Source of the DNA: Eubacteriales bacterium
GTDB taxonomy: Bacteria > Bacillota > Clostridia > Oscillospirales > CAG-272
DNA: 64,000 bases
NCBI GenBank assembly: GCA_045638685.1
Contig: JAZUBT010000035.1
Coordinates: 1,788-65,787 of the forward strand
Direction of reading: 5' to 3'
The notes beneath the pieces were generated by a model. The model did no database searches and was not told the DNA's origin. It worked only from the letters and a program-made list of their open reading frames with translations. Below, in pieces: positions 1 to 17,741 of the stretch. The translations under genes and the position numbers were made by a program. Position 1 is the first letter of the stretch. Each line of letters begins with the position of its first letter.

Positions 1-138
1 TCCGTAGGATATGCCGAGGAAATTTCGGAGAAAACCGGACTTCCCGTTCTTTATACCACGGTAAGCGAGAATATGTACTTGCCGCTTGAAGGTAAAATTA
101 AAAATCTCTATAAAATAAACCTGCAAAAACGTATGTAA
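1..138 (+). CDS. 3' end of a gene truncated by the window edge (SVGYAEEISEKTGLPVLYTT...LQKRM*), probably co-transcribed with the vor genes
   Basis: Open frame from position 1 to TAA at 136-138, 13 nt before the ferredoxin start; product not identifiable from this fragment. Confidence 0.6.
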   Translation, partial: SVGYAEEISEKTGLPVLYTTVSENMYLPLEGKIKNLYKINLQKRM

Positions 139-151
139 AGGAGAATTTACA

Positions 152-358
152 ATGGCAAAACTGACGTTCAAAACCGATAAATGTAAGGGTTGCGGTCTTT
201 GTGTAAGCGCCTGTCCTAAGGGTGTACTCGCACTTGCCGCTGATAAAATCAATCAAAAAGGACACCATCCGGTAGAGGCTGTAAACGAAGCGGCGTGTAT
301 CGGCTGCGCATTCTGCGCCACTATGTGTCCCGACTGTATAATCAAGGTAGAAAGGTAG
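152..358 (+). CDS. 2x[4Fe-4S] ferredoxin-like (delta) subunit of 2-oxoacid:ferredoxin oxidoreductase
   Basis: Two CxxCxxCxxxCP motifs (CKGCGLCVSACP, CIGCAFCATMCP); AGGAG RBS; adjacent to alpha/beta/gamma subunits. Confidence 0.92.
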   Translation: MAKLTFKTDKCKGCGLCVSACPKGVLALAADKINQKGHHPVEAVNEAACIGCAFCATMCPDCIIKVER

Positions 359-368
359 GACTTTAAAA

Positions 369-1436
369 ATGGCAGATAAGGTTTTAATGAAGGGTAACGA
401 AGCTATCGCAGAGGCCGCTATAATCGCGGGCTGCAGACATTACTTCGGTTATCCGATAACTCCTCAGACTGAAATTGCCGCATATATGGCAAAGAGAATG
501 CCGAAAATAGGCGGAGTATTTCTTCAGGCGGAGAGCGAAATTGCCGCTATAAATATGGTATATGGAGTTGCCGCAACGGGAAAACGCGTAATGACCTCCT
601 CGTCAAGCCCCGGGATTTCTCTTAAAGGAGAGGGCTTGTCCTATCTCGCGGGTGCGGATCTTCCTTCACTTATTATAAACGTTCAGAGAGGCGGCCCCGG
701 ACTCGGCGGTATTCAGCCCTCGCAGTCCGACTATTTCCAGGCGACCAAGGGCGGCGCTCACGGAGACTTCCATATGATAGTTTTAGCTCCCGCTTCGGTT
801 CAGGAGATGGCAGAGCTTACCGTTAAGGGATTTGACCTTGCGGATAAATACCGTATGACCTCTATGATTCTTGCAGACGGTACTATGGGACAGATGATGG
901 AGCCTGTTTCTCTTGATATTCCCGTAGGCGAGACGGTAGAAAAGCCGTGGGCGGTTACCGGAACTAAGATGCAGAGAGAGCATAACGTTGTAAACTCTCT
1001 TTATCTTAAGCCCGAAATGCTTGAGAAAACCAACTTTGAGCGTTACGAGCGCTATGAGGTAATAAAGCAGAACGAGGTAATGTACGAGCAGTACCTTATG
1101 GACGATGCGGAAATCTGCATAGCGGCGTTCGGTATTGCCGCGCGTGTTTCCAAAAATGCTATAAACGAAGCCCGTAAAAAGGGTATAAAGGTCGGTATGA
1201 TAAGACCTATAACACTCTGGCCGTTCCCGGAAAAGCAGTTTGCCGCTGCCGCGGAAAGGGTTAAGTCATTTATCTCCGTTGAGCTTTCGATGGGACAGAT
1301 GATAGAGGATATTAAGCTTGCCGTAAACGGAAAGGCGGAGGTTACGCTTTGTAACCGCTCCGGCGGTATGATACCGTCTCCCGAGCAGGTTCTTGCAGCG
1401 ATAGAGGCTGCGGCGGAAAAAGGAGGTAATAAGTAA
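369..1436 (+). CDS. vorB: 2-oxoacid:ferredoxin oxidoreductase alpha subunit, VorB/2-ketoisovalerate type
   Basis: MKGNEAIAEAA, GYPITPQTE, QAESE, TSSSSPG, QRGGPGLG motifs. Confidence 0.88.
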   Translation: MADKVLMKGNEAIAEAAIIAGCRHYFGYPITPQTEIAAYMAKRMPKIGGVFLQAESEIAAINMVYGVAATGKRVMTSSSSPGISLKGEGLSYLAGADLPSLIINVQRGGPGLGGIQPSQSDYFQATKGGAHGDFHMIVLAPASVQEMAELTVKGFDLADKYRMTSMILADGTMGQMMEPVSLDIPVGETVEKPWAVTGTKMQREHNVVNSLYLKPEMLEKTNFERYERYEVIKQNEVMYEQYLMDDAEICIAAFGIAARVSKNAINEARKKGIKVGMIRPITLWPFPEKQFAAAAERVKSFISVELSMGQMIEDIKLAVNGKAEVTLCNRSGGMIPSPEQVLAAIEAAAEKGGNK

Positions 1437-2179
1437 TGGTAGTATTTGATAAGCCCCATGCACTTGCGGATGTACCGCTTCACTACTGCCCCGGATGTAC
1501 CCACGGTATAGTTCACCGTCTGGTTGCCGAGGTTATTGATGAGCTTCAGATCGAAGGAAGAACGGTAGGAGTAGCGCCTGTTGGCTGCTCCGTTATGGCG
1601 TACGATTATTTCAACTGCGATATGATAGAGGCGGCTCACGGACGCGCGCCCGCTGTCGCAACAGGTGTTAAGCGTTCCGATCCCGAAAACATTGTATTTA
1701 CATATCAGGGAGACGGAGACCTTGCCTCGATAGGTATGGCAGAAACCGTACATGCGGCGGCAAGAAACGAAAACATCACAATTATATTCATAAATAACGC
1801 AATCTACGGTATGACCGGAGGACAGATGGCACCTACCTCACTTCCGGGACAGATTACCCAGACCTCTCCTTACGGAAGAGACGTAAACCACTGCGGATTC
1901 CCGATAAAGGTTTGCGAGATGCTTTCTCAGCTTGACGGCGCCGAGTACCTTGAGCGCGTAGCGGTAAATAACGTCAAAAACATAAAGAACGCTAAGAAGG
2001 CTATTAAGAAAGCGTTTGAAAATCAGGTTAACGGCAAGGGCTTTTCTCTTGTTGAGGTTGTTTCCAGCTGTCCTACCAACTGGGGACTTACTCCCGAAAA
2101 GGCTCTTGAGTGGATCGACGAAAAGATGCTTCCTTATTACCCGCTCGGTGTATATAAGGACAGATCGGCAGAGAAATAA
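1436..2179 (+). CDS. 2-oxoacid:ferredoxin oxidoreductase beta (TPP-binding) subunit
   Basis: [22 protein letters not shown] motif GDGD...NN, YGMTGGQ, CPTNW; TAATG overlap with alpha. Confidence 0.92.
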
Positions 2180-2200
2180 GAAAGGTAGGAGTGAGTGAAA

Positions 2201-2746
2201 ATGAAAACAACACAGTATCTTATCGCAGGATTCGGTGGACAGGGAATTCTGTTTGCCGGAAAATTTCTTGCATATAAAGGTCTTACCGACGGCGCAAACG
2301 TAAGCTGGCTTCCCTCGTACGGCCCCGAAATGAGAGGCGGTACCGCAAGCTGCAGCGTTATAATCAGCGACACCCCGGTAGGCTCTCCTATTGTATCAAA
2401 TCCCGACGTTCTTATTGCTATGAACCTTCCGTCTCTTGATAAGTATGAGGACAGCGTTGTTCCCGGCGGAACGATATACGTTGATTCCACCCTTATCGAG
2501 CGCAAGGTAAAGAGAACCGACGTAAACGTATTCTACATACCCGCAACTCAGATAGCTTCGGATAACAAGACTCCTACCCTTGCTAATATGATTATAATGG
2601 GTAAGGTTCTTAAGGAAAACGGAGAGTTCGACGATAAAACATCGGTTGACGCAGCCCTTAAAAAGGTTATTTCCGCAAAGCGTATGGATATGCTTGAAAC
2701 CAACCTCGGAGCTATGGTTCTCGGTAGAGATTACGCGGCTCTGTAA
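2201..2746 (+). CDS. 2-oxoacid:ferredoxin oxidoreductase gamma subunit
   Basis: AGFGGQG and [10 protein letters not shown] motifs; ATG 2201 is best spaced from the AGGAG RBS. Confidence 0.92.
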
Positions 2747-2872: not shown

Positions 2873-3937
2873 ATGGAAATCAAAATAACAAAAACAACTA
2901 CTCCGGCGGCAAAGCCCGATCCGTCCACGCTTGGATTCGGTAAGGTTTTCACCGACCACATGTTCATTATGGAGTACACCGCGGATAAGGGTTGGCATGA
3001 CGCAAGAATTGTTCCCTTTGGAAAGATCGAGCTTCACCCCGCGTGTACCGCGCTTCATTACGGCTCCGAGGTTTTCGAGGGACTTAAGGCGTACCGCAAG
3101 GCTGACGGAAGCGTACAGCTTTTCAGACCTATCGAAAACATTCGCAGAATGAACCGCTCCGCAGAGCGTCTTTGTCTCCCCGAAATACCGGAGGATATCG
3201 CTATGCAGGTTCTTACCGAGTTTGTAAAATTCGAGCAGGAGTGGGTACCCTCCGCTCCCGGCACCTCGCTTTATATCCGTCCTTTTATGTACGGAAACGA
3301 CGAGACTCTCGGAGTTCATTCGGTAAAGCACGCTACCTTTATGATAATCACCTCTCCCGTAGGAAGCTACTACAAGGAGGGTATTAACCCCGTTAAAATT
3401 ATGATAGAAGCTGACGACGTAAGAGCTGTAAGAGGCGGCACGGGTGAGGCTAAATGCGGCGGTAACTACGCTGCAAGTAACCGTGCGGGCGAGAAAGCGG
3501 AGAAGAAGGGATATTCTCAGGTTCTCTGGCTTGACGGTGTTGAGCGTAAGTACATCGAAGAGGTTGGAGCTATGAACGTAATGTTCAAGATAGACGGAGA
3601 GATAGTTACTCCTATGCTCACCGGCTCCATTCTCCCCGGAATTACCCGTAAGTCCTGTATCGAAATGCTTAAGGCTGAGGGCTACAAGGTAAGCGAGAGA
3701 CTTATAAGCGTTGACGAGCTTGGTCAGGCTCTTGAAAACGGCAAGCTTGAGGAGGCATGGGGCTGCGGAACTGCGGCTGTTATCTCGCCTATCGGAGAGC
3801 TTTGCTACAAGGACGTTAAGTACGTAATTAACGACGGAAAAATCGGAGAGGTTACGGCTCACCTTTACGATACCATTACCGGTATTCAGTGGGGTAGGCT
3901 TGAGGACAAGTACGGCTGGACAAAGCCCCTTGTTTAA
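2873..3937 (+). CDS. ilvE: Branched-chain amino acid aminotransferase
   Basis: FTDHM, LHYG..FEGLKAY, PLP lysine in AKCGGNY, EVGAMN, ILPGITR, GTAAVISP. Confidence 0.96.
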   Translation: MEIKITKTTTPAAKPDPSTLGFGKVFTDHMFIMEYTADKGWHDARIVPFGKIELHPACTALHYGSEVFEGLKAYRKADGSVQLFRPIENIRRMNRSAERLCLPEIPEDIAMQVLTEFVKFEQEWVPSAPGTSLYIRPFMYGNDETLGVHSVKHATFMIITSPVGSYYKEGINPVKIMIEADDVRAVRGGTGEAKCGGNYAASNRAGEKAEKKGYSQVLWLDGVERKYIEEVGAMNVMFKIDGEIVTPMLTGSILPGITRKSCIEMLKAEGYKVSERLISVDELGQALENGKLEEAWGCGTAAVISPIGELCYKDVKYVINDGKIGEVTAHLYDTITGIQWGRLEDKYGWTKPLV

Positions 3938-3961: not shown

Positions 3962-3990
3962 TTGACAAAAGCAGCTCGCTGTGATACAAT
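3962..3990 (+). promoter_or_regulatory. Sigma-A promoter of the T-box operon
   Basis: TTGACA (3962-3967), 17 nt spacer, TG-n-TACAAT extended -10 (3985-3990). Confidence 0.85.
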
Positions 3991-4009
3991 TACTTTGTTA
4001 TGACAAATG

Positions 4010-4262
4010 CAAAGAAGGAATTATTTTCCGCTGAAAGCATCACAGAGAGTCGGCGCTACGGTGCAAGTCGATATGCAGAAAACGGAAAAGTCTCGTTCCC
4101 GAGCAGAACCTCCGAAAGTTTTTCAGTAAGAGGCTCCGGAATGCCCCGTTATCAAGGCAAAAGGCTTGACAGAGTCTTACAGAGAGACCGCTTTTGCGGT
4201 AATCAGGGTGGTAACACGGATAAATTCGTCCCTGAAGCCTTATGGCTTCGGGGACTTTTTTT
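4010..4262 (+). promoter_or_regulatory. T-box riboswitch, leucine specifier (CUC)
   Basis: Stem I (GGAA/TTCC, TTTTCCG/CGGAAAA, AGAGA bulge, GGTGCAA loop), CTC at 4092-4094, CCGTTA F-box, T-box AGGGTGGTAACACGG (UGGU fits tRNA-Leu A73), terminator GTCCCTGAAGCC/GGCTTCGGGGAC + T-run at 4228-4262. Confidence 0.92.
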
Positions 4263-4292: not shown

Positions 4293-5690
4293 GTGAAAAA
4301 GATTACAATAGCCGATATGACTCTTACGGAATATTCCCAGACGTTATCGTTTAAAGAAAAGATTGAGGTTGTAAGAAGTCTTGATAACCTAAACGTTGAC
4401 GTTATATATATGCCGAGAATAGAAAACGTAAAGGCCGACAGCCTGCTTATCCGTACCGTTTCGGCGTTTGTAAAGAACAGCACGTTATGTGTCGAGGCGG
4501 GTAATACGGCCGAAAGTATAGAAGCGGCGGCTATGGCTATATCGGGAGCTAAAAGCGCCCGTATGTCGGTAAGGCTTCCCGTATCTCCCGTTCAGATGGA
4601 ATATACCTATCACAAAAAGCCTGCTAAAATGGCGGAGCTTGCGAAGGAGCTTTTTGCCGCAGCAACGGCAAAATGCGAGAACGTTGAGTTTTACGCGGAG
4701 GACGCAACCCGCGCTGACGGTGCGTTCTTACGCGAGATGGTAACGGCAGCGATAGACGCCGGAATAAAGACGGTTACCTTCTGCGACGACGAGGGTTCTA
4801 TGCTTCCAGACGAGTTTTCCGCGTTTATCGAGGGGCTCCGTAAGGATATTCCCGAGCTTGACGGTGTGTCTATTGGAGCGGTATGCAAAAACACGAACGG
4901 AATGTCAAGCGCCTCTGCCGTAATGGCGGTAAAGGCGGGAGTAAGTGAAATAAAGTGCTGCGTAGGTAAAAACGAAATCACCGGACTTTCCGATTTCGCG
5001 AAAATTCTTTCCGACAGCGGAGACAGATGCGGTGTTTATTCGAGCATCAACTACAACGTTCTCAGCCGTACAGTAAATCAGATAAAGTGGATAGAGGGCG
5101 ATAAAAAATCGGGTGTCTCGACTACCGTAGAGCTTTCCGATAACAATGCTGACGTATTTGATATTCACGATAGCGAGGAAAACGTAGCCGTAGCCGTTAA
5201 AAAGCTCGGTTATGAGCTTTCGGACGATGATTTTGTAAGGGTTTACGAGGAGTTTAAGCGTGTTGCCGCCAAGAAAAATATTACGGCAAAGGACCTCGAC
5301 GCGATCGTATCGAGCGTTGCGCTTCAGGTTCCCCCCACGTATAAGCTTGTAAGCTACGCTATAAATAGCGGAAACATTATTACTTCGTCTGCTCAGATAA
5401 AGCTTGATAAAAAGGGTGAATTTATAAGCGGAATCTCTATGGGAGACGGTCCTATTGACGCCGCCTTCAAAACCCTTGAGCAGATAATAGGACGTCATTT
5501 TGAGCTTGACGATTTCCAGATTCAGTCGGTAACCGAGGGACAGGAGGCTATGGGATACGCTCTCGTAAAGCTTCGTAACGAGGGCAAGCTTTACTCCGGA
5601 AACGGTATTTCCACCGATATTATGGAGGCATCAATCAAGGCATATATAAACGCAGTTAACAAAACGGTTTACGAGGAGGAAACAAAATGA
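4293..5690 (+). CDS. LeuA (2-isopropylmalate synthase)-like protein with degenerate catalytic domain and intact C-terminal regulatory domain
   Basis: LeuA architecture; C-terminal GDGPIDAA, FQIQSVTEG, GNGISTDIMEAS intact; DTTLRDG and HxH motifs replaced. GTG 4293 chosen because ATG 4242 lies inside the T-box terminator. Confidence 0.85.
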   Translation: MKKITIADMTLTEYSQTLSFKEKIEVVRSLDNLNVDVIYMPRIENVKADSLLIRTVSAFVKNSTLCVEAGNTAESIEAAAMAISGAKSARMSVRLPVSPVQMEYTYHKKPAKMAELAKELFAAATAKCENVEFYAEDATRADGAFLREMVTAAIDAGIKTVTFCDDEGSMLPDEFSAFIEGLRKDIPELDGVSIGAVCKNTNGMSSASAVMAVKAGVSEIKCCVGKNEITGLSDFAKILSDSGDRCGVYSSINYNVLSRTVNQIKWIEGDKKSGVSTTVELSDNNADVFDIHDSEENVAVAVKKLGYELSDDDFVRVYEEFKRVAAKKNITAKDLDAIVSSVALQVPPTYKLVSYAINSGNIITSSAQIKLDKKGEFISGISMGDGPIDAAFKTLEQIIGRHFELDDFQIQSVTEGQEAMGYALVKLRNEGKLYSGNGISTDIMEASIKAYINAVNKTVYEEETK

Positions 5691-8206
5691 AGCTTTCATT
5701 TTCAACAAAGGGCTGGCACGGTAAAACCTTTGAAGAGCTTTGTGAGATAGCAAAGGAGCTTCGCTTTTCCGGAATAGAGCTTCATAATATAAAAAACAAG
5801 CTGTTTACAGATAGCGACAGCGCGTTTAATGACTATGCAACCGCCGCTACTCTCCGCAGACTGTACGAGATGAAGATAAGCATTCCCTGTATAGACAGTA
5901 TATGCGATCCGGCTGATACGGAAAAGGCAGACGAGGCTATGAGAGAGCTTAAGGAGTGCATCCGTATAGCGAAAAATCTTCATATTCCTTATATAAGAGT
6001 ACACGCATCCGCTCACGGGGAAAAGGATTTTGAAACTGTAAGAGCTTTTATCTCCGAGATTCTTCCGATAGCGGAATCCGCGGGTGTTCATATTCTGCTT
6101 GAAACGAGCGGACTTTTCAGCGATGCAAAAACTCTCCGCGATATGCTTGATAGCTTTGCGAGTGATAGCCTTTCGGCGCTTTGGGATGTTTATTCCTCTT
6201 ATTTTATAGCCGGACAGTCTCCCGAAGCCACGATAGAAACTCTCGGCGCTTACGTAAAGCATATTCACATAAAGGACGCCGAAAAGACGGAGGACGGCAT
6301 ACGTTACTCTCTTATGGGCGAGGGACAGCTGCCTATCAGCGAGCTTATAGGTGCGCTGCGTTCCGTTAACTATAACGGCTTTATCTCGCTTGAATGGCAC
6401 CCGAAATGGTGCGAGGAGATAGATGACCTTGAAATTATCCTTTCTCAGTTTGAAAACTTTATGAGTCAGTTCAGCGATACCGCAAGAGCTGATAACTCAC
6501 TTTATTATAACAAATCCCATACGGGTAGATACGTCTGGAAAAAGGAGCTTCTTATAGACCTCACCTTTCCGAAGGTTCTCGACCGTATGGTTGAGGAGTT
6601 CCCCGACAAGCTTGCGTTTAAATATACAACGCTTGACTATACACGAACCTACTACGAGTTCAGAAAGGACGTTGACACCTTTGCCCGTAGCCTTATCTCG
6701 CTTAACGTTAAGCCGGGCGACCACGTTGCGGTATGGGCGACCAATATTCCGCAGTGGTATATAGCCTTCTGGGCAGTAACCAAGATAGGCGCGGTTCTCG
6801 TTTCAATGAACACGGCATACAAAATTCACGAGGCGGAGTATCTTTTAAAGCAGTCGGATACGCATACGCTTATTATGATTGACGGCTACCGCGACTCAAA
6901 TTACTCCGAGACGATAGCCGAGCTTTGCCCCGAGCTTGAAAACACAAAGCCCGGCACGCCGCTTCACAGCCGCCGTCTGCCCTTCCTCCGTAACGTAATT
7001 ACGGTAGGCTTTAAGCAGAAGGGCTGCCTTACTTGGGAGGAGACGGTAGCGAGAGCGGATATGGTACCGGTTGACGAGGTTTACCGCCGCGCCGCCGCCG
7101 TTGATAAGGACGACGTATGTAATATGCAGTACACCTCGGGAACCACCGGCTTCCCCAAGGGCGTTATGCTTACCCACTATAACGTTGTAAATAACGGAAA
7201 ATGCATCGGAGACAGAATGGATCTCTCCACCGCCGACAGAATGATGATACAGGTCCCGATGTTCCACTGCTTCGGAATGGTTCTTGCTATGACTGCAAGT
7301 ATGACGCACGGCGTTACCCTGCTTCCGCTTCCGTATTACGCGCCGAAGCCCGCGCTTGCGTGTATAAATTCTGAAAGAATAACCGCCTTCCACGGTGTTC
7401 CTACCATGTTTATATCGCTCCTTGAGCACGAGGACTTTGAAAAGACCGATTTTTCGTATATGCGTACCGGTATTATGGCGGGAAGCCCCTGTCCTATCTC
7501 CGTTATGCAGGACGTTATAAAGAAGATGCACATGGACGAGATAACCATAGTTTACGGACAGACCGAGGCGTCTCCCGGCTGTACTATGAGCTCAACCGAC
7601 GACCCTATTGAGGTAAGAGTAGGAACGGTAGGACGTGCGCTTCCCGAAATAGAATGCAAGATAGTTAATCCCGAAACGGGAGAGGAATGTCCCGATGACG
7701 TAACGGGAGAGTTTGTGGCGAGAGGCTACAACATTATGAAGGGCTACTACAAGATGCCCAAGGCTACCGCAGCGGCGATAGATAAGGACGGCTGGCTCCA
7801 TACGGGAGACCTTGCCTGCCGAACGGCGGAGGGTAATTTCCGTATTACGGGACGCCTTAAGGATATGATTATCAGAGGCGGAGAGAACATCTATCCAAAG
7901 GAGATAGAGGAGTTTATCTATACCCACCCGAAGGTTAAGGACGTTCAGGTTATAGGTGTTCCCGACGAGCAGTACGGCGAGGAGATAATGGCGTGTATCA
8001 TTTTGAAGGACGGCGAGGAAATGACCGTTTCCGAGATGAAGGACTACATTAATTCTCACATGGCGCGTCATAAGGTTCCGAAATATATTGACTTTGTAAA
8101 AGAGTTCCCGATGAACGTTGCGGGTAAGATACTTAAGTACAAAATGCGCGAGGACGCCATCGAAAAGCTTGGTCTGCAAAAGGCGGCAAAGGTGGTAACG
8201 GCGTAA
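5687..8206 (+). CDS. Fusion: N-terminal xylose-isomerase/AP-endonuclease-2-like TIM barrel + C-terminal AMP-forming acyl-CoA ligase
   Basis: N-term GIEL, LLET, WD, HIHIKD, GEG, SLEW; C-term QYTSGTTGFPKG, YGQTE, GWLHTGD, RLKDMIIRGGENIYP, GKILK; ATGA overlap with upstream gene. Confidence 0.9.
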   Translation: MKLSFSTKGWHGKTFEELCEIAKELRFSGIELHNIKNKLFTDSDSAFNDYATAATLRRLYEMKISIPCIDSICDPADTEKADEAMRELKECIRIAKNLHIPYIRVHASAHGEKDFETVRAFISEILPIAESAGVHILLETSGLFSDAKTLRDMLDSFASDSLSALWDVYSSYFIAGQSPEATIETLGAYVKHIHIKDAEKTEDGIRYSLMGEGQLPISELIGALRSVNYNGFISLEWHPKWCEEIDDLEIILSQFENFMSQFSDTARADNSLYYNKSHTGRYVWKKELLIDLTFPKVLDRMVEEFPDKLAFKYTTLDYTRTYYEFRKDVDTFARSLISLNVKPGDHVAVWATNIPQWYIAFWAVTKIGAVLVSMNTAYKIHEAEYLLKQSDTHTLIMIDGYRDSNYSETIAELCPELENTKPGTPLHSRRLPFLRNVITVGFKQKGCLTWEETVARADMVPVDEVYRRAAAVDKDDVCNMQYTSGTTGFPKGVMLTHYNVVNNGKCIGDRMDLSTADRMMIQVPMFHCFGMVLAMTASMTHGVTLLPLPYYAPKPALACINSERITAFHGVPTMFISLLEHEDFEKTDFSYMRTGIMAGSPCPISVMQDVIKKMHMDEITIVYGQTEASPGCTMSSTDDPIEVRVGTVGRALPEIECKIVNPETGEECPDDVTGEFVARGYNIMKGYYKMPKATAAAIDKDGWLHTGDLACRTAEGNFRITGRLKDMIIRGGENIYPKEIEEFIYTHPKVKDVQVIGVPDEQYGEEIMACIILKDGEEMTVSEMKDYINSHMARHKVPKYIDFVKEFPMNVAGKILKYKMREDAIEKLGLQKAAKVVTA

Positions 8207-9021
8207 TGTATGCGGGTAAGTTTTGGACGGTAGATGCTCACTGTCATATCTATCCCGAAAAAATAGCTGCAAGAGCAATTAACGGAACGGATACCTTTTA
8301 CGGACTTCATTCGGTAAAAAACGGTATTGCGGCTGACATGATAAAAGAGGGAACGGCCCTCGGAATAGATCACTACGTCGTTCAGTCGGTTGCTTCAACG
8401 CCAAGACAGGTCAAAAGCATAAACGAGTTTATCGCGAGAGAGGAAGCCGAATATAAAGGAAGGCTTACAGGGCTTGGAACACTTCACCCCGACAGCGAGG
8501 ATATAGAGGGTGATTTCGAGCATCTTTGCGAGCTTTCGCTCCACGGAGTAAAGCTTCACCCCGACATTCAAGGGTTTCGTATAGACGATAAAAGGTGTAT
8601 GAAAATATATGAGCTGTGTGAAAGCCACGGGCTTCCGATACTTATGCATACGGGAGACTATCGCTACGATAATTCTAACCCCGATAGGCTAATTCCTGTT
8701 TTGAAGGCATTTCCGAAGCTTATTACGGTCGGTGCGCATCTCGGCGGCTGGTCGGTATGGGACGAGGCGGCGAAGAAGCTTTGCGGATTTGAAAATTTTT
8801 ACGTTGATTCTTCTTCCTCGTTTAATTTTCTGACCGATGAGAAAATGAAGGAGCTTATCCTCGCTTACGGCGTGGATAGGGTGCTGTTTGCGACCGATTA
8901 TCCTATGTGGGATGCAGGCGAGGAGCTGAAGCGCCTTGCCTCCCTCGGATTTACCGATGAGGAGTATTCGCTTCTTCTCGGAAAAAACGCGGCAAAGGTT
9001 TTCGGTATAGGAGAAAATTAA
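8206..9021 (+). CDS. Amidohydrolase_2 family metal-dependent hydrolase/decarboxylase
   Basis: DAHCH, GVKLHP, HTG, AHLGG, FATDYP; TAATG overlap. Confidence 0.88.
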   Translation: MYAGKFWTVDAHCHIYPEKIAARAINGTDTFYGLHSVKNGIAADMIKEGTALGIDHYVVQSVASTPRQVKSINEFIAREEAEYKGRLTGLGTLHPDSEDIEGDFEHLCELSLHGVKLHPDIQGFRIDDKRCMKIYELCESHGLPILMHTGDYRYDNSNPDRLIPVLKAFPKLITVGAHLGGWSVWDEAAKKLCGFENFYVDSSSSFNFLTDEKMKELILAYGVDRVLFATDYPMWDAGEELKRLASLGFTDEEYSLLLGKNAAKVFGIGEN

Positions 9022-9026
9022 ATAAA

Positions 9027-9057
9027 AACGCCCTTGGACAGTAAGCCCAAGGGCGTT
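9027..9057. terminator. 11-bp hairpin after the amidohydrolase gene (no + strand U-tract)
   Basis: AACGCCCTTGG / CCAAGGGCGTT. Confidence 0.6.
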
Positions 9058-9215: not shown

Positions 9216-9998
9216 ATGAATTCTTTGGAAATAAGGGGAAGCCAAAGAAAGGTTTTTGCCGAGGGCATGAGAGATGCCATTCCGATAGGACTCGGATACC
9301 TTGCCGTATCCTTTTCTCTCGGTATTATGGCAAAAAATTCGGGACTTTCCGCTTTGCAGTCCTTTATCGCGAGTCTCCTCTGTATCGCCTCTGCGGGTGA
9401 GTATGCGGGCTTTGTGCTGATAGCGGCGAAGGCGGCATACATTGAGGTTGCCGTTATGACGCTTGTCGTAAACGCGAGATATATGCTTATGAGCTGCGCT
9501 CTCAGTCAAAAATTCTCGCCGAGCGAAAAGCTTTCACATAGGTTTTTCAGCGGATATTTCGTAACGGACGAAATTTTCGGTATAACCATGGCAAGAGAGG
9601 GCTTTTTGAACCCGTATTACGTTTACGGGGCGGCGTTTACCGCGGTACCGCTCTGGTCGATCGGAACTGCGATAGGCGCTATTGCGGGAGCGTGGCTTCC
9701 CGTGAGCATCGTAAGTGCGCTCAGCGTTGCGCTTTACGGAATGTTTATTGCGATAATAATTCCGCCGGCGAGAAAAAATAAGATTATAGCAGGTATAATC
9801 ACCGTTTGCTTTGTTCTTAGCTATTTAACGAAATTTATCCCTGCCGCGTGGAAGCTTTCCGAGGGTACGGTTACCATAATACTTACCGTTTTCATTTCCG
9901 CCGTGGCGGCGGTGCTTTTTCCCCGAAAGGACGACGAAGAGGAAGTGTGTTCCGAACGAGAGATGGTATCTGAGGAGAAAGGGGGAGAGGCTAAATGA
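9216..9998 (+). CDS. azlC: AzlC family branched-chain amino acid transporter subunit
   Basis: G..DAIPIGLGY..VSFSLG, VNARY.LMS, TDEIF; hydrophobic. Confidence 0.9.
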   Translation: MNSLEIRGSQRKVFAEGMRDAIPIGLGYLAVSFSLGIMAKNSGLSALQSFIASLLCIASAGEYAGFVLIAAKAAYIEVAVMTLVVNARYMLMSCALSQKFSPSEKLSHRFFSGYFVTDEIFGITMAREGFLNPYYVYGAAFTAVPLWSIGTAIGAIAGAWLPVSIVSALSVALYGMFIAIIIPPARKNKIIAGIITVCFVLSYLTKFIPAAWKLSEGTVTIILTVFISAVAAVLFPRKDDEEEVCSEREMVSEEKGGEAK

Positions 9999-10315
9999 AA
10001 AACAATATATTTGTCTATATCCTGATTATGGCGGGAGTTACATACCTTGTAAGAGTACTGCCTATCACCCTTATACGAAAGCAGATTAAAAACCGTTTTG
10101 TAAAATCCTTCCTTTATTACGTTCCGTACGTAACCCTTGCCGTTATGACGTTCCCCGCGATACTGAACGTTACACAGTCTCCGATTTCGGGAGCGATAGC
10201 TCTTGCGGTCGGAATAGCTCTCGCGTGGTTCGGCGCAAGTCTTTTCAAGGTTGCGGTTGCCTCTTGCTCGGTTGTGTTTATTTCAGAGCTGATAATGACG
10301 TATTTGATTAAGTAA
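9995..10315 (+). CDS. azlD: AzlD family transporter subunit
   Basis: MAGVTYLVRVLP, FLYYVPY..LA.MTFP; overlaps azlC. Confidence 0.88.
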   Translation: MKNNIFVYILIMAGVTYLVRVLPITLIRKQIKNRFVKSFLYYVPYVTLAVMTFPAILNVTQSPISGAIALAVGIALAWFGASLFKVAVASCSVVFISELIMTYLIK

Positions 10316-10347: not shown

Positions 10348-12813
10348 TTATTCGCTTTTTTCTTTATTCCATACAAGACCGTTTTCATCTGCGGAAACGG
10401 TTACCGTATCGCCCTTTGCAAATTTTCCCTCAAGCATCGCCGTGGCAAAGCCGTCCTCTACCTTATGAACTATTGTACGGCGGAGAGGCCTTGCTCCGTA
10501 AACCCTGTCGGTTCCTTCCCTTGCGAGGTAGTCCATAGCCTTTTCGTCAAAGCGTATGTTAACCCCTATCGCCGCTATACGCTTTACAACAGATTTAATC
10601 ATATTATCGGCAATACGGCGTATATCCGCGTCGGAAAGCTTATCAAAGACTATAATCTCGTCAATTCGGTTAAGGAATTCGGGACGGAACGCTTCTTTAA
10701 GAGCGGACATTACGCGTTCTCTTGTAGCCGCCTTCTCGTCTGCGGGCGCGTTTGAAACGGTAAAGCCGAGCGTTTTTCCCGAGGTAGTTATTTCTCTTGC
10801 GCCAAGGTTCGAGGTCATAATGATAACCGCGTTTTTAAAGTCAACACGCCTACCCTGAGAGTCGGTTAAAATACCGTCGTCAAGTATCTGGAGCATAAGA
10901 TTAAAGACGTCGGGGTGCGCTTTTTCGATTTCGTCGAAAAGAACTACCGAATAAGGCTTACGGCGTATCTTCTCGGTAAGCTGACCGCCCTCATCGTATC
11001 CGATATAACCGGGAGGGGAGCCTATCATTTTGGATACGCTCGCCTTTTCCATATACTCCGACATATCTACCCTTATCATTGCGTTTTCGTCTCCGAAAAG
11101 GATTTCGGCAAGAGCCTTCGAAAGCTCGGTTTTACCGACACCCGTCGGCCCGAGGAATATAAACGAGCCTGTCGGACGGCTCGGGTCCTTAAGTCCTATT
11201 CTTGAACGTCTTATCGCGTTTGCGACGGATACTACCGCCTCGTCCTGACCGATAACTCTTTCGTGAAGCAGCTTTTCAAGGCTAAGGAGCCTGCTTTCCT
11301 CCTCCTCGGCAAGCTTTTTGACCGGTATGCCCGTCCACTGAGTAACTATTTCCTCTATGTCTGATGCGGTAACCGCATCGCTTTCCGGAGTTTTGTTTTT
11401 CTCCCATTCCGTTTTCTTGGCGTTGTACTCGTCATTAAGCTTCGTTTCCTCGTCGCGTATCCTTGCGGCCTTTTCGAAATCCTGGTCAACTATCGCGTCG
11501 CGCTTTTCGTCGGCAAGCTTTTTAAGCTGCGCTTCAAGAGCTTTGACGTCTTCGGGAACCGAAAGAGTGCCTATACGCTTTCTCGAAGCCGCCTCGTCGA
11601 TAAGGTCTATCGCTTTATCGGGCAGATAGCGGTCGCCTATATAACGTCTTGAAAGATTTACTGCCGCCGTAACGGCTCCGTCGGAGATTTTAAGCTTATG
11701 ATGCTCCTCGTATCTTGGGCGCAGTCCCATTAAAATCTTTACCGCGTCCTCGGGGGAGGGTTCTCCAACGCTGACCGACTGGAAGCGTCGCTCGAGCGCG
11801 GCGTCCTTTTCAATATATTTACGGTATTCCGATACCGTGGTGGCGCCTATTACCTGAAATTCACCCCTTGAAAGCGCGGGCTTTATAATGTTGGCGGCAT
11901 CCATGCTGCCCTCCGAGGTTGCCCCCGCGCCGACTATGGTGTGAATTTCGTCTATGAAAAGAATTACTCCGCGGTTACCTTTAACCTCGTTCATAACCCC
12001 TTTCAGGCGCTCCTCGAACTCACCCCTGTACTTTGTTCCCGCAAGCATACCCGAAACGTCAAGGCTTACTATTATTTTCCCCTTAAGATTTTCGGGCACG
12101 TCTCCATTGACTATTTTCTGCGCAAGTCCTTCCACAACGGCTGTTTTACCGACACCCGCCTCGCCTATAAGACAAGGATTGTTCTTTGTACGTCTTGACA
12201 GAATCTGTATAAGGCGTTCGCTTTCGCTGTCGCGTCCTATAACGGGATCAAGCTTTCCTTCCTTTGCCATTCTGGTAAGATCCTTGCCGTATTTTTTAAG
12301 ATTTGCCATTCCTCTGAAAGATTGAGAGCCGAGATTTTCCTCGCGGACGTCGTCTGTTTCTCCGCTATCCTCGCTGTCGGCACTCATTAAGGCAAGAAGA
12401 TCCTTTCCAAGCTCGGAAATATCAACTCCCTCCGCAGAGAGCAGCTTTACCGCAACGCAGTCGGAAAGAGAGAGGAGCGATATAAGAAGATGCTCCGTTC
12501 CGATAGCCTCGCTTCCGCGTTTTGTTGCCTCGTAAGCTGAGGCTTGTATGATTTTATTCATTTTTTCGGTTATGTTTCTCGGCGTGGGAGAGGTTGGCGT
12601 GCCGGAGCCCATGTGATTTTTAACCGATTCGTACATGGCCTCGTAGTCTATTCCGTGTTTGTCGAGAAGCTCCGTTGCCGCGCACTCCTGAACGCTTAAT
12701 ATACCGAGCAAAAGATGCTCTGAGCCGACGTCGGTATGACCGAGCTTTCCGGCTTCGCCGAGAGAGGCGTTAAGAGCCGCTTCCGCGTATTTTGTAAATT
12801 TACTGTTTGACAT
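10348..12813 (-). CDS. clpC: ATP-dependent Clp protease ATPase ClpC
   Basis: Clp-N repeats, [17 protein letters not shown] coil, [17 protein letters not shown]; start ATG 12813 with GGAG RBS. Confidence 0.96.
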
Positions 12814-13003
12814 TTTAATCTCCATTCCGCTATCCAAAGGATAGCTGATAGCATATTTAAGCGAGTTTTCCGTTTTTTGCATCGCGAAACAAAACGCTGC
12901 TTAGCCTTTTAGGAAAACTCAGACGTGAAAAGCTTTTTGTTAGCACTTGCCGAGCCTCCACGCCACACCCGTTCGTTAATAAACAGGCAGAAAAGATAAT
13001 GTT

Positions 13004-14023
13004 TTATCCGTGATTTACTTTTACGGTAGAAAGAGTATCCCGTACAAGTCTTGCTCTTGCCACGTCTCTTGCTGTATCGTCGTCAAGCCCTTCCTTGGTC
13101 ATAGAGATAGTAGCAGGCTGTACCGCAACAAGCAGCTCGCTCATTTTTTCATCGGTTATACCCGAAAGCAGTCCGATGCAAAGACCGAGCTTTATATCAG
13201 CAAAGCCGCTGTTAAACTCTGAGGAGGAGAGAACGTGAGCGCTTTTTAACAGACCGACGCTTCTTGCAATTTTATCGGTAAGCGCGGTTCTTTTAAGCTC
13301 GAAAATACCGTTTCTCGCCCCCCGCTCTGCCTCGACAAGCTTTTTAACGACGTCGGTTATAAGCTTTAAAATCTCCGTCTCGTCTATACCGAGAGAGGTG
13401 CGGTTTGAAATTTGATATATGCACCCCGCCGCCGAGCTTCCTTCCCCGTAAAGCCCACGAATGGTAATTCCCATTTTGCTTAAAGCTTGCTCATAAGAGG
13501 AAATTAAGTTTTTCAGCGTAAGCGCGGGCAGGCAAAGCATAGCGGAAACCCTCATAGCGCCGCCGAGATTTGTCGGACAGGCGGTAAGGTACCCGTATTT
13601 ATCGCTGTAAGCAATTTTGAGCTCTCCGCATATACGGTCGTCAGCCTTACTCGCGTTTTCATAGGCTTTTTTGGGAGCAAAGCCCGCGACTATGCTCTGT
13701 ATTCTTAAATGGTCCTCCTCGCAGACCATAATTTTAACCTTGTCGTTTCCGCCGCTGAGAAGCGCTCTTGTCTTGTCGGAGGAGGCAAATTCGGGGCTTA
13801 CGAAATGCATCTCCATATAAGAGCGGAGTCTATCCTTTTCCGATGAGGTGAAGCGCTCGCAGCCGTAGTCGCTAAGTGTTCCCGATACGGCGTCTATTAC
13901 ATCGGCTCTGCCCTTTTCGTCAAGTCTTGCGGGGAAGGGATAGTCCGAGAGGTTTCTTGCAAAACGAACTCTCGTTGATATAACGACGTCCTGCATATCT
14001 CCGGTTTCCGTGTACCAAGCCAT
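13004..14023 (-). CDS. mcsB: Protein arginine kinase McsB
   Basis: STRVRFARN, EEDHLRIQ, GYLTACPTNLG, RGLYGEGS; operon context. Confidence 0.93.
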   Translation of the reverse strand: MAWYTETGDMQDVVISTRVRFARNLSDYPFPARLDEKGRADVIDAVSGTLSDYGCERFTSSEKDRLRSYMEMHFVSPEFASSDKTRALLSGGNDKVKIMVCEEDHLRIQSIVAGFAPKKAYENASKADDRICGELKIAYSDKYGYLTACPTNLGGAMRVSAMLCLPALTLKNLISSYEQALSKMGITIRGLYGEGSSAAGCIYQISNRTSLGIDETEILKLITDVVKKLVEAERGARNGIFELKRTALTDKIARSVGLLKSAHVLSSSEFNSGFADIKLGLCIGLLSGITDEKMSELLVAVQPATISMTKEGLDDDTARDVARARLVRDTLSTVKVNHG

Positions 14024-14024
14024 A

Positions 14025-14522
14025 TCACTTATCCTCCTTCTTCTCAATAGCCTTTATTTTGTCCCTGATTTCGGCTGCTTTTTCATAATTTTCGGAAAGC
14101 ACAGCTTCCTCCTGCTCTTTTTTAAGAGCCTCTATTTCGTCTCGTTTGGTAAGCTCCTCAACGTGCTTTCCGGGTGCGGAGCCTGAATGCGTGGTATGAC
14201 CGTGAATTCCGTAAATGATTTTTGAAAGCTCCTCGGAGAAAACGTTATAACATTCCGCGCAGCCCGCACGTCCCGTTTTGGCAAGCTCACGTTTTGTTGA
14301 CTTACAGAGAGGACAAATCTTTTTCTCCGCTATTCCCGTGCCGCCAAGTATGCTGTCGCTGAAAAATCCCGAGAAGAGACTGTCGGCGCCACCGCTGAAA
14401 AACGTGCCGAGGTTTTCCTTTTCTGCGCATTCCGAGCAGAGCATACGCTCGCTTACTTCTCCGTTAATTACCTGCTTTATATGAACCGTCGCGCTGTTTT
14501 TATGGCATTTCTGACACAGCAT
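14025..14522 (-). CDS. mcsA: McsA activator (CxxC motifs + UVR domain)
   Basis: CQKC, CSEC, CPLC, CAEC; ENYEKAAEIRDKI. Confidence 0.92.
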   Translation of the reverse strand: MLCQKCHKNSATVHIKQVINGEVSERMLCSECAEKENLGTFFSGGADSLFSGFFSDSILGGTGIAEKKICPLCKSTKRELAKTGRAGCAECYNVFSEELSKIIYGIHGHTTHSGSAPGKHVEELTKRDEIEALKKEQEEAVLSENYEKAAEIRDKIKAIEKKEDK

Positions 14523-15900: not shown

Positions 15901-17721
15901 ATGAAAAAGAATAAAAATACAGATAAGAATACTGAATACAAGACCGTTACAGATTACCTACGACCGTTCAAGCTTTACGTGGTACTCACCGTAACGGTTA
16001 AATTTATCGCTACCTTTGCCGAGCTTTTCCTGCCGTCCACCCTTTCGTATATGGTCGATACGCTTGCACCCGCAAAGGACGTTAAGAAAATGGTTATTTT
16101 CGGTCTTATAATGGTGCTGTGCTCACTCGTCGCGCTTATAGGAAATATAACGGCGAACAGAATGGCGGCGAAAACGGCGAGTAAGATAACGGAGAAGCTA
16201 AGACACGACGTATATGTAAAAACGCTGTCGCTTTCCTGCCAAAAGACCGATGAGTTTACCGTTCCGACGCTTATTTCAAGGCTCACAAGCGATACCTATA
16301 ACCTACATAATATGCTCAGAATGGTACAGCAGGGCGGTATAAGAGGTCCTATAATCGTAATAGGCGGCATAATTATCACCTCGTTTCTCGATAAGGCTTT
16401 AACGCTTATACTCGTCGCGCTTCTGCCTGTCGTTTTCACCATAATATTCTTTATATCAAGAAAGGGTGTAAGAATATACGGAGACGTCCAGAAAACCTCG
16501 GACGAAATGGTTTCCGTGCTTCGTGAAAATATGGAGGGGGTACGTGTAATAAAGGCGCTCTCCAAAACCGAATACGAAAGAGAGCGTTTTTCGGGTATAA
16601 ACGAAAGGATATATAGGTACGACAGAAAAGCGGGAATAACCACAGGTCTTTCGGGCCCTGTTATGAACGTCTTTTTAAATCTCGGCTTTTGCGCGGTTAT
16701 ACTTGCCGGTGCGTACAGAGTTAACGCCAGACACACAGAGCCGGGTGTTATTATCGCGTTTTTAAGCTATTTTACCCTTATACTTATGGCTATGATGATG
16801 ATAAACAGAATTTTTATGCTTATAAGTAAGGGGGTAGCCTCGGGAAAAAGACTTAACGAGGTGCTTAAAGCCCCGTCAGACGACGATTTTACCCCTGTTT
16901 CTGCTACGAGTGATTGCGTAGAAGCGAATGCCGGTTACGGCTCGCAAGAGCACTTCGAAGCCGAGAAAAGTCAGGAGAGCCATTATCCGTATCACGTTTC
17001 CTTTGAAAACGTTACCTTTTCCTATTTAAAGAAAAGAAATAACCTTGAAAACCTTTCCTTTAATCTTAAAAGGGGAGAGACGCTTGGAATTATCGGTTCA
17101 ACCGGCTCGGGTAAAACCACTATAATTAATCTGCTTCTCAGATTTTATAAAGCCGATAGCGGTGAGGTAAAAATAAACGGAAAAAATATTAACGAGATAC
17201 CGAGAGGGAAGCTTTATAAAATGTTCGGCTCGGCGCTGCAAACCGATTTTCTTATGTCGGATACCATAAAAGAAAATATACGCTTTGAAAGAGACATTTC
17301 CGACGAGGAGATAACCTACGCCGCAGTAAACGCTCTTGCCGACGGCTTTATAAAGGATAAGAGCGGAGGATACGAGCATCTTCTTGACGTAAAAGCGGCA
17401 AACCTCAGCGGTGGACAAAAGCAGCGACTTCTTATCGCAAGAGCCATTGCTGGAAAGCCGGATATACTGATACTTGACGACTCGTGCAGCGGACTTGACT
17501 ATAAGACCGACTCTCTTTTACGTCAGAATCTCGGTAGCGGCTACGCCGAATGCACGAAGGTTATTGTTGCTCAAAGAGCGAGCACCGTAATGAACGCCGA
17601 CCTTATAATTGTAATGGACGACGGTGAGGTCGTCGGTATAGGCAGACACGACGAGCTTATGGAGAAATGTGAGCTTTACCGCGAGACTGCGATAGCGCAG
17701 ATGGCGGCTGCGAAAGAATAA
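15901..17721 (+). CDS. ABC exporter half (TMD+NBD), degenerate-site subunit of a heterodimer
   Basis: GSTGSGKT, LSGGQKQR, Walker B LDDS (E to D), switch AQR (H to Q). Confidence 0.92.
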   Translation: MKKNKNTDKNTEYKTVTDYLRPFKLYVVLTVTVKFIATFAELFLPSTLSYMVDTLAPAKDVKKMVIFGLIMVLCSLVALIGNITANRMAAKTASKITEKLRHDVYVKTLSLSCQKTDEFTVPTLISRLTSDTYNLHNMLRMVQQGGIRGPIIVIGGIIITSFLDKALTLILVALLPVVFTIIFFISRKGVRIYGDVQKTSDEMVSVLRENMEGVRVIKALSKTEYERERFSGINERIYRYDRKAGITTGLSGPVMNVFLNLGFCAVILAGAYRVNARHTEPGVIIAFLSYFTLILMAMMMINRIFMLISKGVASGKRLNEVLKAPSDDDFTPVSATSDCVEANAGYGSQEHFEAEKSQESHYPYHVSFENVTFSYLKKRNNLENLSFNLKRGETLGIIGSTGSGKTTIINLLLRFYKADSGEVKINGKNINEIPRGKLYKMFGSALQTDFLMSDTIKENIRFERDISDEEITYAAVNALADGFIKDKSGGYEHLLDVKAANLSGGQKQRLLIARAIAGKPDILILDDSCSGLDYKTDSLLRQNLGSGYAECTKVIVAQRASTVMNADLIIVMDDGEVVGIGRHDELMEKCELYRETAIAQMAAAKE

Positions 17722-17741
17722 GTAAGAAAGGGGGACTTGAA

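Follow-up and report, generated by a model that had tools for sequence, protein, structure and literature searches.

The 64,000-nucleotide stretch analyzed here (the window; positions 1,788 to 65,787 of contig C35, JAZUBT010000035.1, from a Eubacteriales bacterium of the class Clostridia) carries at positions 4293-5690 a gene whose product, which we call LeuAx, is a homolog of the isopropylmalate synthase LeuA. LeuAx is predicted to be catalytically dead while retaining the regulatory domain of LeuA, and its gene lies behind a leucine T-box leader and immediately ahead of a gene for an acyl-CoA ligase. The annotated features of the locus are listed below. Window coordinates are contig C35 coordinates minus 1787, and L009 designates one of the related loci described further on.

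1-135, plus strand: 3' part of a CbiA/ParA-like P-loop gene (tblastn with the L009 P-loop protein: C35:1266-1922, 64% identity).
137-355, plus strand: VorD-like 2x[4Fe-4S] ferredoxin subunit (tblastn with the L009 protein: C35:1924-2142, 94.5% identity; its L009 ortholog matches Fer4 families).
369-2746, plus strand: VorA (369-1436), VorB (1436-2179) and VorG (2195-2746) (Pfam POR_N/PFOR_II, TPP_enzyme_C and POR).
2873-3937, plus strand: IlvE, branched-chain amino acid aminotransferase (NCBIfam NF009897, 481.5 bits vs. a cut-off of 307).
3962-3990, plus strand: promoter-like site, TTGACA, 17 nucleotides, TACAAT, with TG before the second hexamer (11/12 consensus matches; identified by consensus match alone).
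4003-4262, plus strand: Leu T-box leader (Rfam RF00230, 111.4 bits vs. a gathering score of 93).
4293-5690, plus strand: LeuAx, predicted catalytically dead LeuA homolog of 465 amino acids (Pfam, NCBIfam, alignments and structural model).
5687-8206, plus strand: 839-amino acid fusion, hereafter TIM::ligase, of a xylose-isomerase-like TIM barrel (residues 1-285, 5687-6541) with an AMP-forming acyl-CoA ligase (6542-8206) (Pfam AP_endonuc_2, AMP-binding and AMP-binding_C; PDB relatives).
8206-9021, plus strand: Amidohydro_2 family protein, hereafter Amh (Pfam PF04909, 105.7 bits).
9216-10315, plus strand: AzlC (9216-9998) and AzlD (9995-10315), branched-chain amino acid transporter pair (Pfam AzlC and AzlD).

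From their domain content, VorA, VorB, and VorG are predicted subunits of a 2-oxoacid:ferredoxin oxidoreductase.

Sequence and fold of LeuAx

LeuAx is encoded by one uninterrupted frame of 465 amino acids with a GTG start. The ATG at 4242, listed by the open reading frame (ORF) program, was rejected as the start because it sits within the terminator hairpin of the T-box (4228-4255); for this reason, and given MKxIxIxD as the beginning of the family consensus, translation probably starts at GTG 4293. At its other end, the stop codon of the gene (TGA, 5688-5690) overlaps the start codon of the ligase gene (ATG, 5687-5689) as ATGA. The protein is laid out as a degenerate DRE-TIM barrel (residues ~1-255), a helical linker (256-335), and a LeuA_dimer regulatory domain (~336-465). 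HMMER alignments to the LeuA barrels 3ewb, 3eeg, and 3rmj place DMTLTEYSQ opposite the DTTLRDGEQ motif (R to T, D to E, G to Y, and E to S) and VCKNT opposite HCHND (H to V and H to K), and they align CCVGKNEIT with the NGxGERAGN loop. The metal-site positions, Asp/His/His in LeuA, are thus occupied by E13, V197, and K199. The EDATR and DxxG motifs of the barrel are partly kept.

Both Pfam domains are recognized with highly significant scores: HMGL-like (PF00682) at 101.7 bits (E = 5.7e-29) and LeuA_dimer (PF08502) at 117.6 bits (E = 4.5e-34), the latter match spanning profile positions 2-130 of 131. The C-terminal domain contains GDGPIDAA, FQIQSVTEG, and GNGISTDIMEAS, and its GDGPIDA and SGxGxSTDI motifs are common to Leu-regulated LeuAs. 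The NCBIfam models for LeuA, CimA, and homocitrate synthase all score far below their cut-offs, the best being NF002086 (279.7 vs. 532 bits); TIGR00973 reaches 240.4 bits vs. a cut-off of 598.7. An AlphaFold2 model built from a 117-row alignment has a predicted local distance difference test (pLDDT) score of 92.3, residues 273-285 being its sole disordered stretch. With this model, Foldseek retrieved the LeuA of Mycobacterium tuberculosis first, and the bacterial LeuA barrels 3ewb, 3eeg, and 3rmj at root mean square deviations of 1.7-2.0 Å. With the C-terminal domain as query, phmmer found a single match, the CimA regulatory domain 3f6g (E = 0.094), which a profile search also returned (E = 0.0057); M. 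tuberculosis LeuA was not reached in these sequence searches.

These features characterize LeuAx as a predicted LeuA-derived pseudoenzyme, in which accessory subdomain I is gone along with the metal site and the substrate ligands, the barrel is well folded, and the LeuA_dimer domain is canonical. A previous reading of the DNA sequence without database searches (the sequence-only reading) had proposed the degeneration of the DRE-TIM, HCHND, and NGIGERAGN motifs, an intact C-terminal allosteric domain, and an unbroken 465-codon frame joined by ATGA to the ligase gene. The first is borne out by the alignment to solved LeuA barrels, the second by a PF08502 score equal to that of true LeuAs (see below), and the third by the translation.

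The LeuAx family: loss of catalytic residues, origin, and selection

By searching 1.84 billion cluster representatives, we obtained 4407 matches at E ≤0.001, and we aligned the 113 matches of at least 430 residues among the best 150; 108 of these are LeuAx-type and 5 fall on the LeuA side. The 108 sequences are representatives of 50%-identity clusters and are 30-64% identical to the window protein. None of them keeps both metal His residues (one His is found in 3/108), the metal Asp is kept in 8, the Arg in 35, and Arg and Asp together in 3, while the Glu of EDATR is retained in 26. A four-residue deletion in the NGxGERAGN loop is shared by 94 of the 108. The lost catalytic positions vary across the family, with no new fixed residue in their place: at least six different residues occur at position 13, and at least eight at each of the first His, the second His, and E136. 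Other barrel residues, F20, E103, Y104, and K109, are family-specific and invariant or nearly so.

Accessory subdomain I (PF22617, HCS_D2) is needed for LeuA catalysis. It is absent from all four LeuAx proteins scanned (the window protein, P0013, P0190, and P0236) vs. scores of 93-95 bits in the canonical LeuAs P0261 and P0264. Likewise, the HMGL-like domain scores 61-107 bits in LeuAx vs. 280-311 in the same two LeuAs. PF08502 scores 101-118 bits in LeuAx vs. 105-114, and the LeuAx matches cover positions 2-130 of its 131-position profile (4-130 in one protein). P0245, on the LeuA side and with its HxH kept, scores 252 bits for the barrel and 115 bits for LeuA_dimer, with no HCS_D2 match.

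In a maximum-likelihood tree of 35 LeuAx proteins, 11 true LeuAs encoded in same-family genomes, and 5 further representatives (L102 was omitted because the wrong ORF frame had been picked), all LeuAx sequences lie on one side of a branch with an SH-aLRT support of 100. The LeuAx family has a single origin. Two LeuA-side proteins, P0256 (511 amino acids) and P0268 (483 amino acids), have lost the HxH (R..Y and C..R, respectively) and kept HCS_D2; they look like independent degenerations of LeuA. In addition, ten metagenome proteins (P0232, P0242, P0243, P0246, P0250, P0251, P0253, P0255, P0259, and P0262) have LeuA_dimer domains 54-68% identical to that of the window protein. Five of the ten carry partial unrelated N-terminal domains (MFS, Laminin_G_3, MBOAT, 7TMR-HDED, and a response-regulator receiver), and the junctions all fall near the LeuAx linker position; these proteins may be assembly chimeras or cases of real domain shuffling.

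For analyses of selection and gene order, we used the best 80 of 286 stretches related to the locus in one-genome-per-species contigs. These related loci stem from Clostridia metagenome assemblies, many of them titled gut, rumen or faecal. Ratios of nonsynonymous to synonymous substitution rates (dN/dS) were computed per domain, as the sequence-only reading had suggested, with the NG86 method on codon alignments from the 80 loci and the window (19 disjoint pairs). The median dN/dS is 0.086 for the LeuAx barrel and 0.101 for the linker, and it falls to 0.022 in the regulatory domain, which is the most constrained part of the protein; for the whole gene it is 0.079 (range 0.03-0.13). The comparison medians are 0.062 for the TIM domain, 0.024 for the ligase, and 0.029 for IlvE. 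LeuAx is thus under purifying selection in all its domains. Neutral decay with frameshifts is not seen: the frame is intact in 81/81 copies, the lone flagged stop being the natural terminator.

These data bear on the idea that LeuAx is a decaying, functionless leuA relic. The catalytic residues are indeed gone and the pathway has been lost in carriers, in line with such a relic. Against it stand the intact frames, the low whole-gene dN/dS, and a family present (match at E ≤1e-60) in 59/300 Clostridia genomes including the window's own, that is, in 58/299 others, with a constant gene order. The relic explanation therefore has next to no chance of being right, and a pseudogene is refuted by the selection and synteny data.

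Leucine control, the ligase, and the missing leucine pathway

The specifier of the T-box is CUC (4092-4094), a leucine codon, and its terminator hairpin (4228-4255) is followed by a U run. We retrieved orthologous leaders by means of an nhmmer profile made from four Rfam-confirmed leaders. The 59 leaders located directly upstream of LeuAx all have a Leu specifier (CUC in 57 and CUG in 2). The 27 other leaders in these loci have GUA (Val, 25) or AUC (Ile, 2) specifiers and, where the ORF was examined (L009, L055, and the window's genome), precede paralogous ligase fusions of ~760 amino acids made of an XRE-type helix-turn-helix (HTH), a Cupin_2, and an AMP-binding domain (L009:1919-4207; L055:14050-16329 and 16674-18956). 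The architecture of these HTH-cupin-ligases recalls a ligase doubling as a DNA-binding regulator. In L009, the Val HTH-cupin-ligase gene is followed, in this order, by those for the P-loop protein, VorD, VorA, VorB, VorG, and IlvE. The window's genome has all three units: Val split across contigs C18 and C35, Ile on C18, and Leu in the window. One of its HTH-cupin-ligases lies at C18:8246-10486; the other spans C18:1166-3 and, upstream of the window, C35:2-1246. The P-loop gene at the beginning of the window comes after the Val-T-box HTH-cupin-ligase gene, which runs off the contig start; the CbiA/ParA Pfam matches on its L009 ortholog stay under the cut-offs. T-boxes activate their genes in response to uncharged cognate tRNA, which argues for a biosynthetic direction of the operon, and the Leu-specifier T-box ties the LeuAx-ligase operon to leucine supply.

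TIM::ligase lies directly 3' of LeuAx in 76/76 related loci with downstream DNA; the other four contigs end at most 354 nucleotides past the gene. Within the window's own family, 46/121 genomes carry LeuAx, with TIM::ligase directly downstream in 46/46, and the pair was also present in 18/18 loci fetched from other Clostridia families. The adjacency of LeuAx and the ligase is obligate. Across loci, identities range over 68-98% for the ligase domain, a degree of conservation out of the ordinary, 34-93% for LeuAx, and 29-94% for the TIM domain. The family genomes were sorted by hand, LeuAx being a long match at E ≤2e-71 and at least 37% identity (with fragments in G029, G051, and G079) and true LeuA a two-piece match at E ≥1e-37, mostly with frames of 484-586 amino acids (two shorter contig-end fragments occur in G096). 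The LeuAx query misses other LeuA types, as 24 LeuB-positive genomes gave no match.

TIM::ligase is found without LeuAx in 15/121 family genomes. Among eight such loci fetched, the gene lies directly behind a T-box in seven (nhmmer), five of the eight T-boxes pass the Rfam gathering score, and the specifier is CUC in 7/7 T-boxes (that of L089 being read by Rfam alignment). True LeuA or LeuB is present in 13 of the 15 genomes. The ligase is therefore behind a Leu T-box also without LeuAx, so the core unit consists of the Leu T-box and TIM::ligase, and LeuAx is an addition to this unit, seen where the isopropylmalate route is missing. At one LeuAx-less locus, a tetrahydrofolate (THF) riboswitch (81.5 bits; L088:5449-5547, minus strand) adjoins the Leu T-box of TIM::ligase.

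In NCBIfam searches, the 839-amino acid fusion reaches 696.5 bits with PRK12583, below the cut-off of 832. In an alignment of 50 orthologs of its TIM domain, four residues (E139, H192, H194, and D197) show little or no variation. The SLEW motif has Val or Ile in place of its β-8 Glu in 6 of the 25 displayed rows, and variation is also seen at the position of the His that precedes GEG in relatives. The TIM domain could itself be a metalloenzyme in partial degeneration. The stop codon of the ligase gene and the ATG of Amh overlap as TAATG. Amh, for which no NCBIfam match was obtained, is present at ≥90% coverage in 51/81 loci and in 5/18 loci from more distant families, and it is thus an optional third gene of the operon.

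A rival explanation is that LeuAx is a new enzyme, whose remodeled barrel, alone or together with the TIM domain and Amidohydro_2, would catalyze a new metal-independent step of leucine salvage, for example by handling a different precursor or by proofreading acyl-adenylates or thioesters, the regulatory domain still providing leucine feedback. Such an activity would account for the clear purifying selection on the barrel and for its family-specific residues F20, E103, Y104, and K109; the TIM domain retains its four conserved residues, and the leucine unit has three extra protein modules compared with the Val and Ile ligases. On the other hand, the residues of the DRE-TIM Claisen condensation are all variable in the family without a new fixed set, Amh is optional, and TIM::ligase works without LeuAx in the 15 genomes mentioned above. 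We thus regard a new enzymatic activity as unlikely, although a serious contender.

Prediction of a complex of LeuAx with the TIM domain only of the ligase gave scores of 0.03 and 0.01 vs. a mark of 0.32, a result that speaks neither for nor against binding. When distance matrices were compared, the LeuAx barrel co-varied with the TIM domain (partial r = 0.65 once ligase and Amh were controlled for, locus pairs being non-independent), whereas the value for the barrel and Amh was -0.04; the former value is a weak hint of the TIM domain as a contact. This co-variation would also suit a purely structural scaffold, in which LeuAx would dimerize through LeuA_dimer and assemble or stabilize the ligase, perhaps bridging it to Vor, with no leucine sensing. 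The obligate adjacency and the overlapping stop and start codons in the window point the same way, as does the description of LeuA as a domain-swapped dimer in which the accessory and regulatory domains hold the subunits together (PMC9860122, in excerpt). Against a scaffold, the regulatory domain is the most constrained part of LeuAx and keeps its GDGPIDA and SGxGxSTDI motifs, a conservation that would exceed the needs of dimerization. The scaffold strikes us as decidedly unlikely.

The window's genome is 91.6% complete, and neither IlvD nor ketol-acid reductoisomerase (KARI) was found in it at this completeness. It has a single Iso_dh-family gene, which scores 139 bits vs. the LeuB cut-off of 353, and a single aconitase of 777 amino acids. 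By their translations, its two other HMGL-like genes appear to encode a citrate/homocitrate-synthase-type protein without LeuA_dimer and an OadA-like carboxyltransferase. A 487-amino acid HMGL-like protein (G000 C44:38386-39849; L001:1264-2727) has intact TDTTFRDGQQ and HGHND motifs and no LeuA_dimer; together with the single aconitase and Iso_dh proteins, it may, we presume, be a Re-citrate-synthase-type enzyme serving glutamate synthesis. Among family genomes, LeuB passes its cut-off in 2/46 LeuAx carriers vs. 35/75 others, that is, 44/46 carriers are without it (these genomes being related and non-independent). LeuAx is near-exclusive with leuB. IlvD is over the cut-off in 10/46 carriers vs. 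33/75 others, and the exclusion is therefore specific to the leucine branch.

Could LeuAx itself be a still-active, unorthodox isopropylmalate or citramalate synthase, making the leucine precursor on its own? Its LeuA fold and regulatory domain, the Leu T-box, and the lack of a canonical LeuA in carriers would be compatible with this idea. Against it, there is no metal site in any of the 108 representatives, subdomain I is gone, the carriers in their great majority have no LeuB to use the product, and the NCBIfam LeuA and CimA models all remain far under their cut-offs. We consider such an activity highly improbable; an active isopropylmalate synthase was rejected on account of the missing metal site, subdomain I, and LeuB.

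Downstream of the operon, a hairpin (9027-9057) separates Amh from azlC; AzlCD is a neighboring pair that may conceivably belong to the operon. Further on, the minus strand contains an 844-amino acid frame resembling a ClpC-type AAA+ chaperone (10348-12882) and a 347-amino acid frame resembling the McsB arginine kinase (13004-14047), both read from their translations, which are probably ordinary neighbors.

A proposed leucine sensor and its relation to known systems

The locus most likely encodes a route from isovalerate to leucine by reductive carboxylation, with isovalerate as the presumed substrate of the ligase. This reading is drawn from the combination of a ligase induced by leucine starvation with Vor and IlvE in a genome without the isopropylmalate route. 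Under leucine shortage, the Leu-tRNA T-box would turn on the operon of LeuAx and TIM::ligase. The ligase would then activate isovalerate to isovaleryl-CoA, AMP-forming ligases being enzymes that drive acyl-CoA formation; VorDABG would reductively carboxylate isovaleryl-CoA to 2-ketoisocaproate, which IlvE would aminate to leucine. LeuAx would dock, probably on the N-terminal TIM domain of the ligase, and its leucine sensing would exert end-product feedback on the route's first committed step; leucine binding, physical contact, and the direction of the regulation are what we infer here. A leucine-sensing regulatory partner of the ligase is, in our view, the most likely role of LeuAx, with about an even chance of being correct.

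Several points weigh against this role. Leucine binding and contact with the ligase are both presumed, and PF08502 domains can be Ile-specific, as in CimA (PMC13381585, in excerpt), which leaves the ligand unsettled by homology. Constraint on the barrel is close to that on the TIM domain (0.086 vs. 0.062); this is unexpected for a spacer and so suggests a specific task for the barrel, which may be to catalyze or to bind a ligand instead of to dock. LeuAx is dispensable for the ligase in the 15 genomes where the latter occurs by itself, the NCBIfam model that the ligase matches best is that of a generic "fatty acid CoA ligase family" and scores below its cut-off, and the retention of IlvD in some carriers limits the link between LeuAx and the loss of branched-chain amino acid synthesis to the leucine branch. 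No fused LeuAx-ligase protein was found in a search for longer forms that was weak by its own statement. Finally, the TIM and Amidohydro_2 modules have roles that leucine sensing by LeuAx leaves unexplained.

The sequence-only reading as a whole is supported in part. Its picture of a dead LeuA with a regulatory domain, coupled to a ligase, is upheld, the coupling extending from the ATGA overlap in the window to every related locus with enough DNA, and the purifying selection and the Leu T-box agree with it; the regulatory subunit of the ligase or of Vor that it proposed is presumed. Its expectation that automated pipelines would call the gene leuA is not supported by NCBI records: the four named proteins among the 120 best homologs are all "hypothetical protein" at NCBI (a name confirmed for two of them by a second look-up), and the NCBIfam LeuA scores are subthreshold. 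The automatic cluster names of the ESM Atlas are "HMGL-like/LeuA allosteric domain-containing protein" or "2-isopropylmalate synthase family protein." For metabolic reconstruction, reading LeuAx as leuA would lead to a false leucine prototrophy, and ignoring the operon to a false auxotrophy. Many gut and rumen Clostridia appear to rely on the branched-chain fatty acids of their neighbors for branched-chain amino acids, and the locus supplies a set of genes open to testing: three T-boxes, each specific for one amino acid, three ligases, one Vor, one IlvE, and a widespread unannotated LeuA-derived pseudoenzyme.

Rumen bacteria have been known since the 1960s to make leucine by carboxylating isovalerate (Allison and co-workers, 1962, 1966, cited in PMC7356843, in excerpt). 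Our literature search found no gene assignment for this route, and the reverse Vor reaction is described, at the gene level, as "not proven yet" in an excerpt of PMC7709123. A ligase, VorDABG, and IlvE under branched-chain amino acid T-boxes fit the biochemistry of the Allison route, the classical scheme of which is without the LeuAx, TIM, and Amidohydro_2 modules. We tentatively extend the proposal as follows, in a form that we think more apt to fail in some part than to hold throughout: when lineages of Clostridia dropped the isopropylmalate route, LeuA would have survived as a dead protein, whose leucine domain would throttle the isovalerate-CoA ligase through its TIM domain; together with the Val and Ile HTH-cupin-ligases, VorDABG, and IlvE, these would be the missing genes of the Allison pathway and their regulation.

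With LeuA of the TIGR00973/PRK00915 type, LeuAx shares the DRE-TIM barrel fold, the helical linker, and the C-terminal LeuA_dimer, which is the amino-acid-binding domain of a Leu-inhibited enzyme (PMC9860122, in excerpt). It differs from LeuA in that the Asp/His/His metal site and the HCS_D2 subdomain I are gone and four residues of the loop are deleted. It is also ~40-50 residues shorter, forms a separate clade, and stays below every NCBIfam cut-off; its gene adjoins that of the ligase, not leuBCD, and is found in genomes that lack leuB. A second comparison is with CimA, whose PF08502 domain is an autonomous Ile-recognition element that works without the catalytic domain (PMC13381585, in excerpt); such a domain can therefore function in the absence of catalysis, but homology alone does not tell which ligand it binds. 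The CimA sensor is engineered and Ile-specific, whereas LeuAx is natural and its ligand is presumed.

The closest functional precedent is HisZ, a dead paralog of HisRS that activates HisG(S) and mediates histidine feedback (PMC9734150 and PMC10795190, both in excerpt). There, a dead amino-acid-recognizing paralog became the allosteric subunit of the enzyme at the first committed step toward that amino acid, and LeuAx would be alike if the proposed role is right. The fold of HisZ is unrelated, and complex formation and feedback are proven for HisZ, whereas they are presumed for LeuAx. A further difference is that LeuA, the ancestor of LeuAx, itself stood under feedback regulation as the first enzyme of another leucine route. 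In our literature search, we found no description of an isopropylmalate synthase pseudoenzyme, of the LeuAx family, or of a Leu-T-box ligase operon. Should LeuAx indeed sense leucine on behalf of the ligase, it would clearly exemplify, in bacteria, an allosteric domain that has outlived catalysis and been rewired to a different pathway. A dead paralog serving as a regulator is a known kind of protein; one derived from LeuA and tied to a ligase under a Leu T-box is new as far as we have seen.

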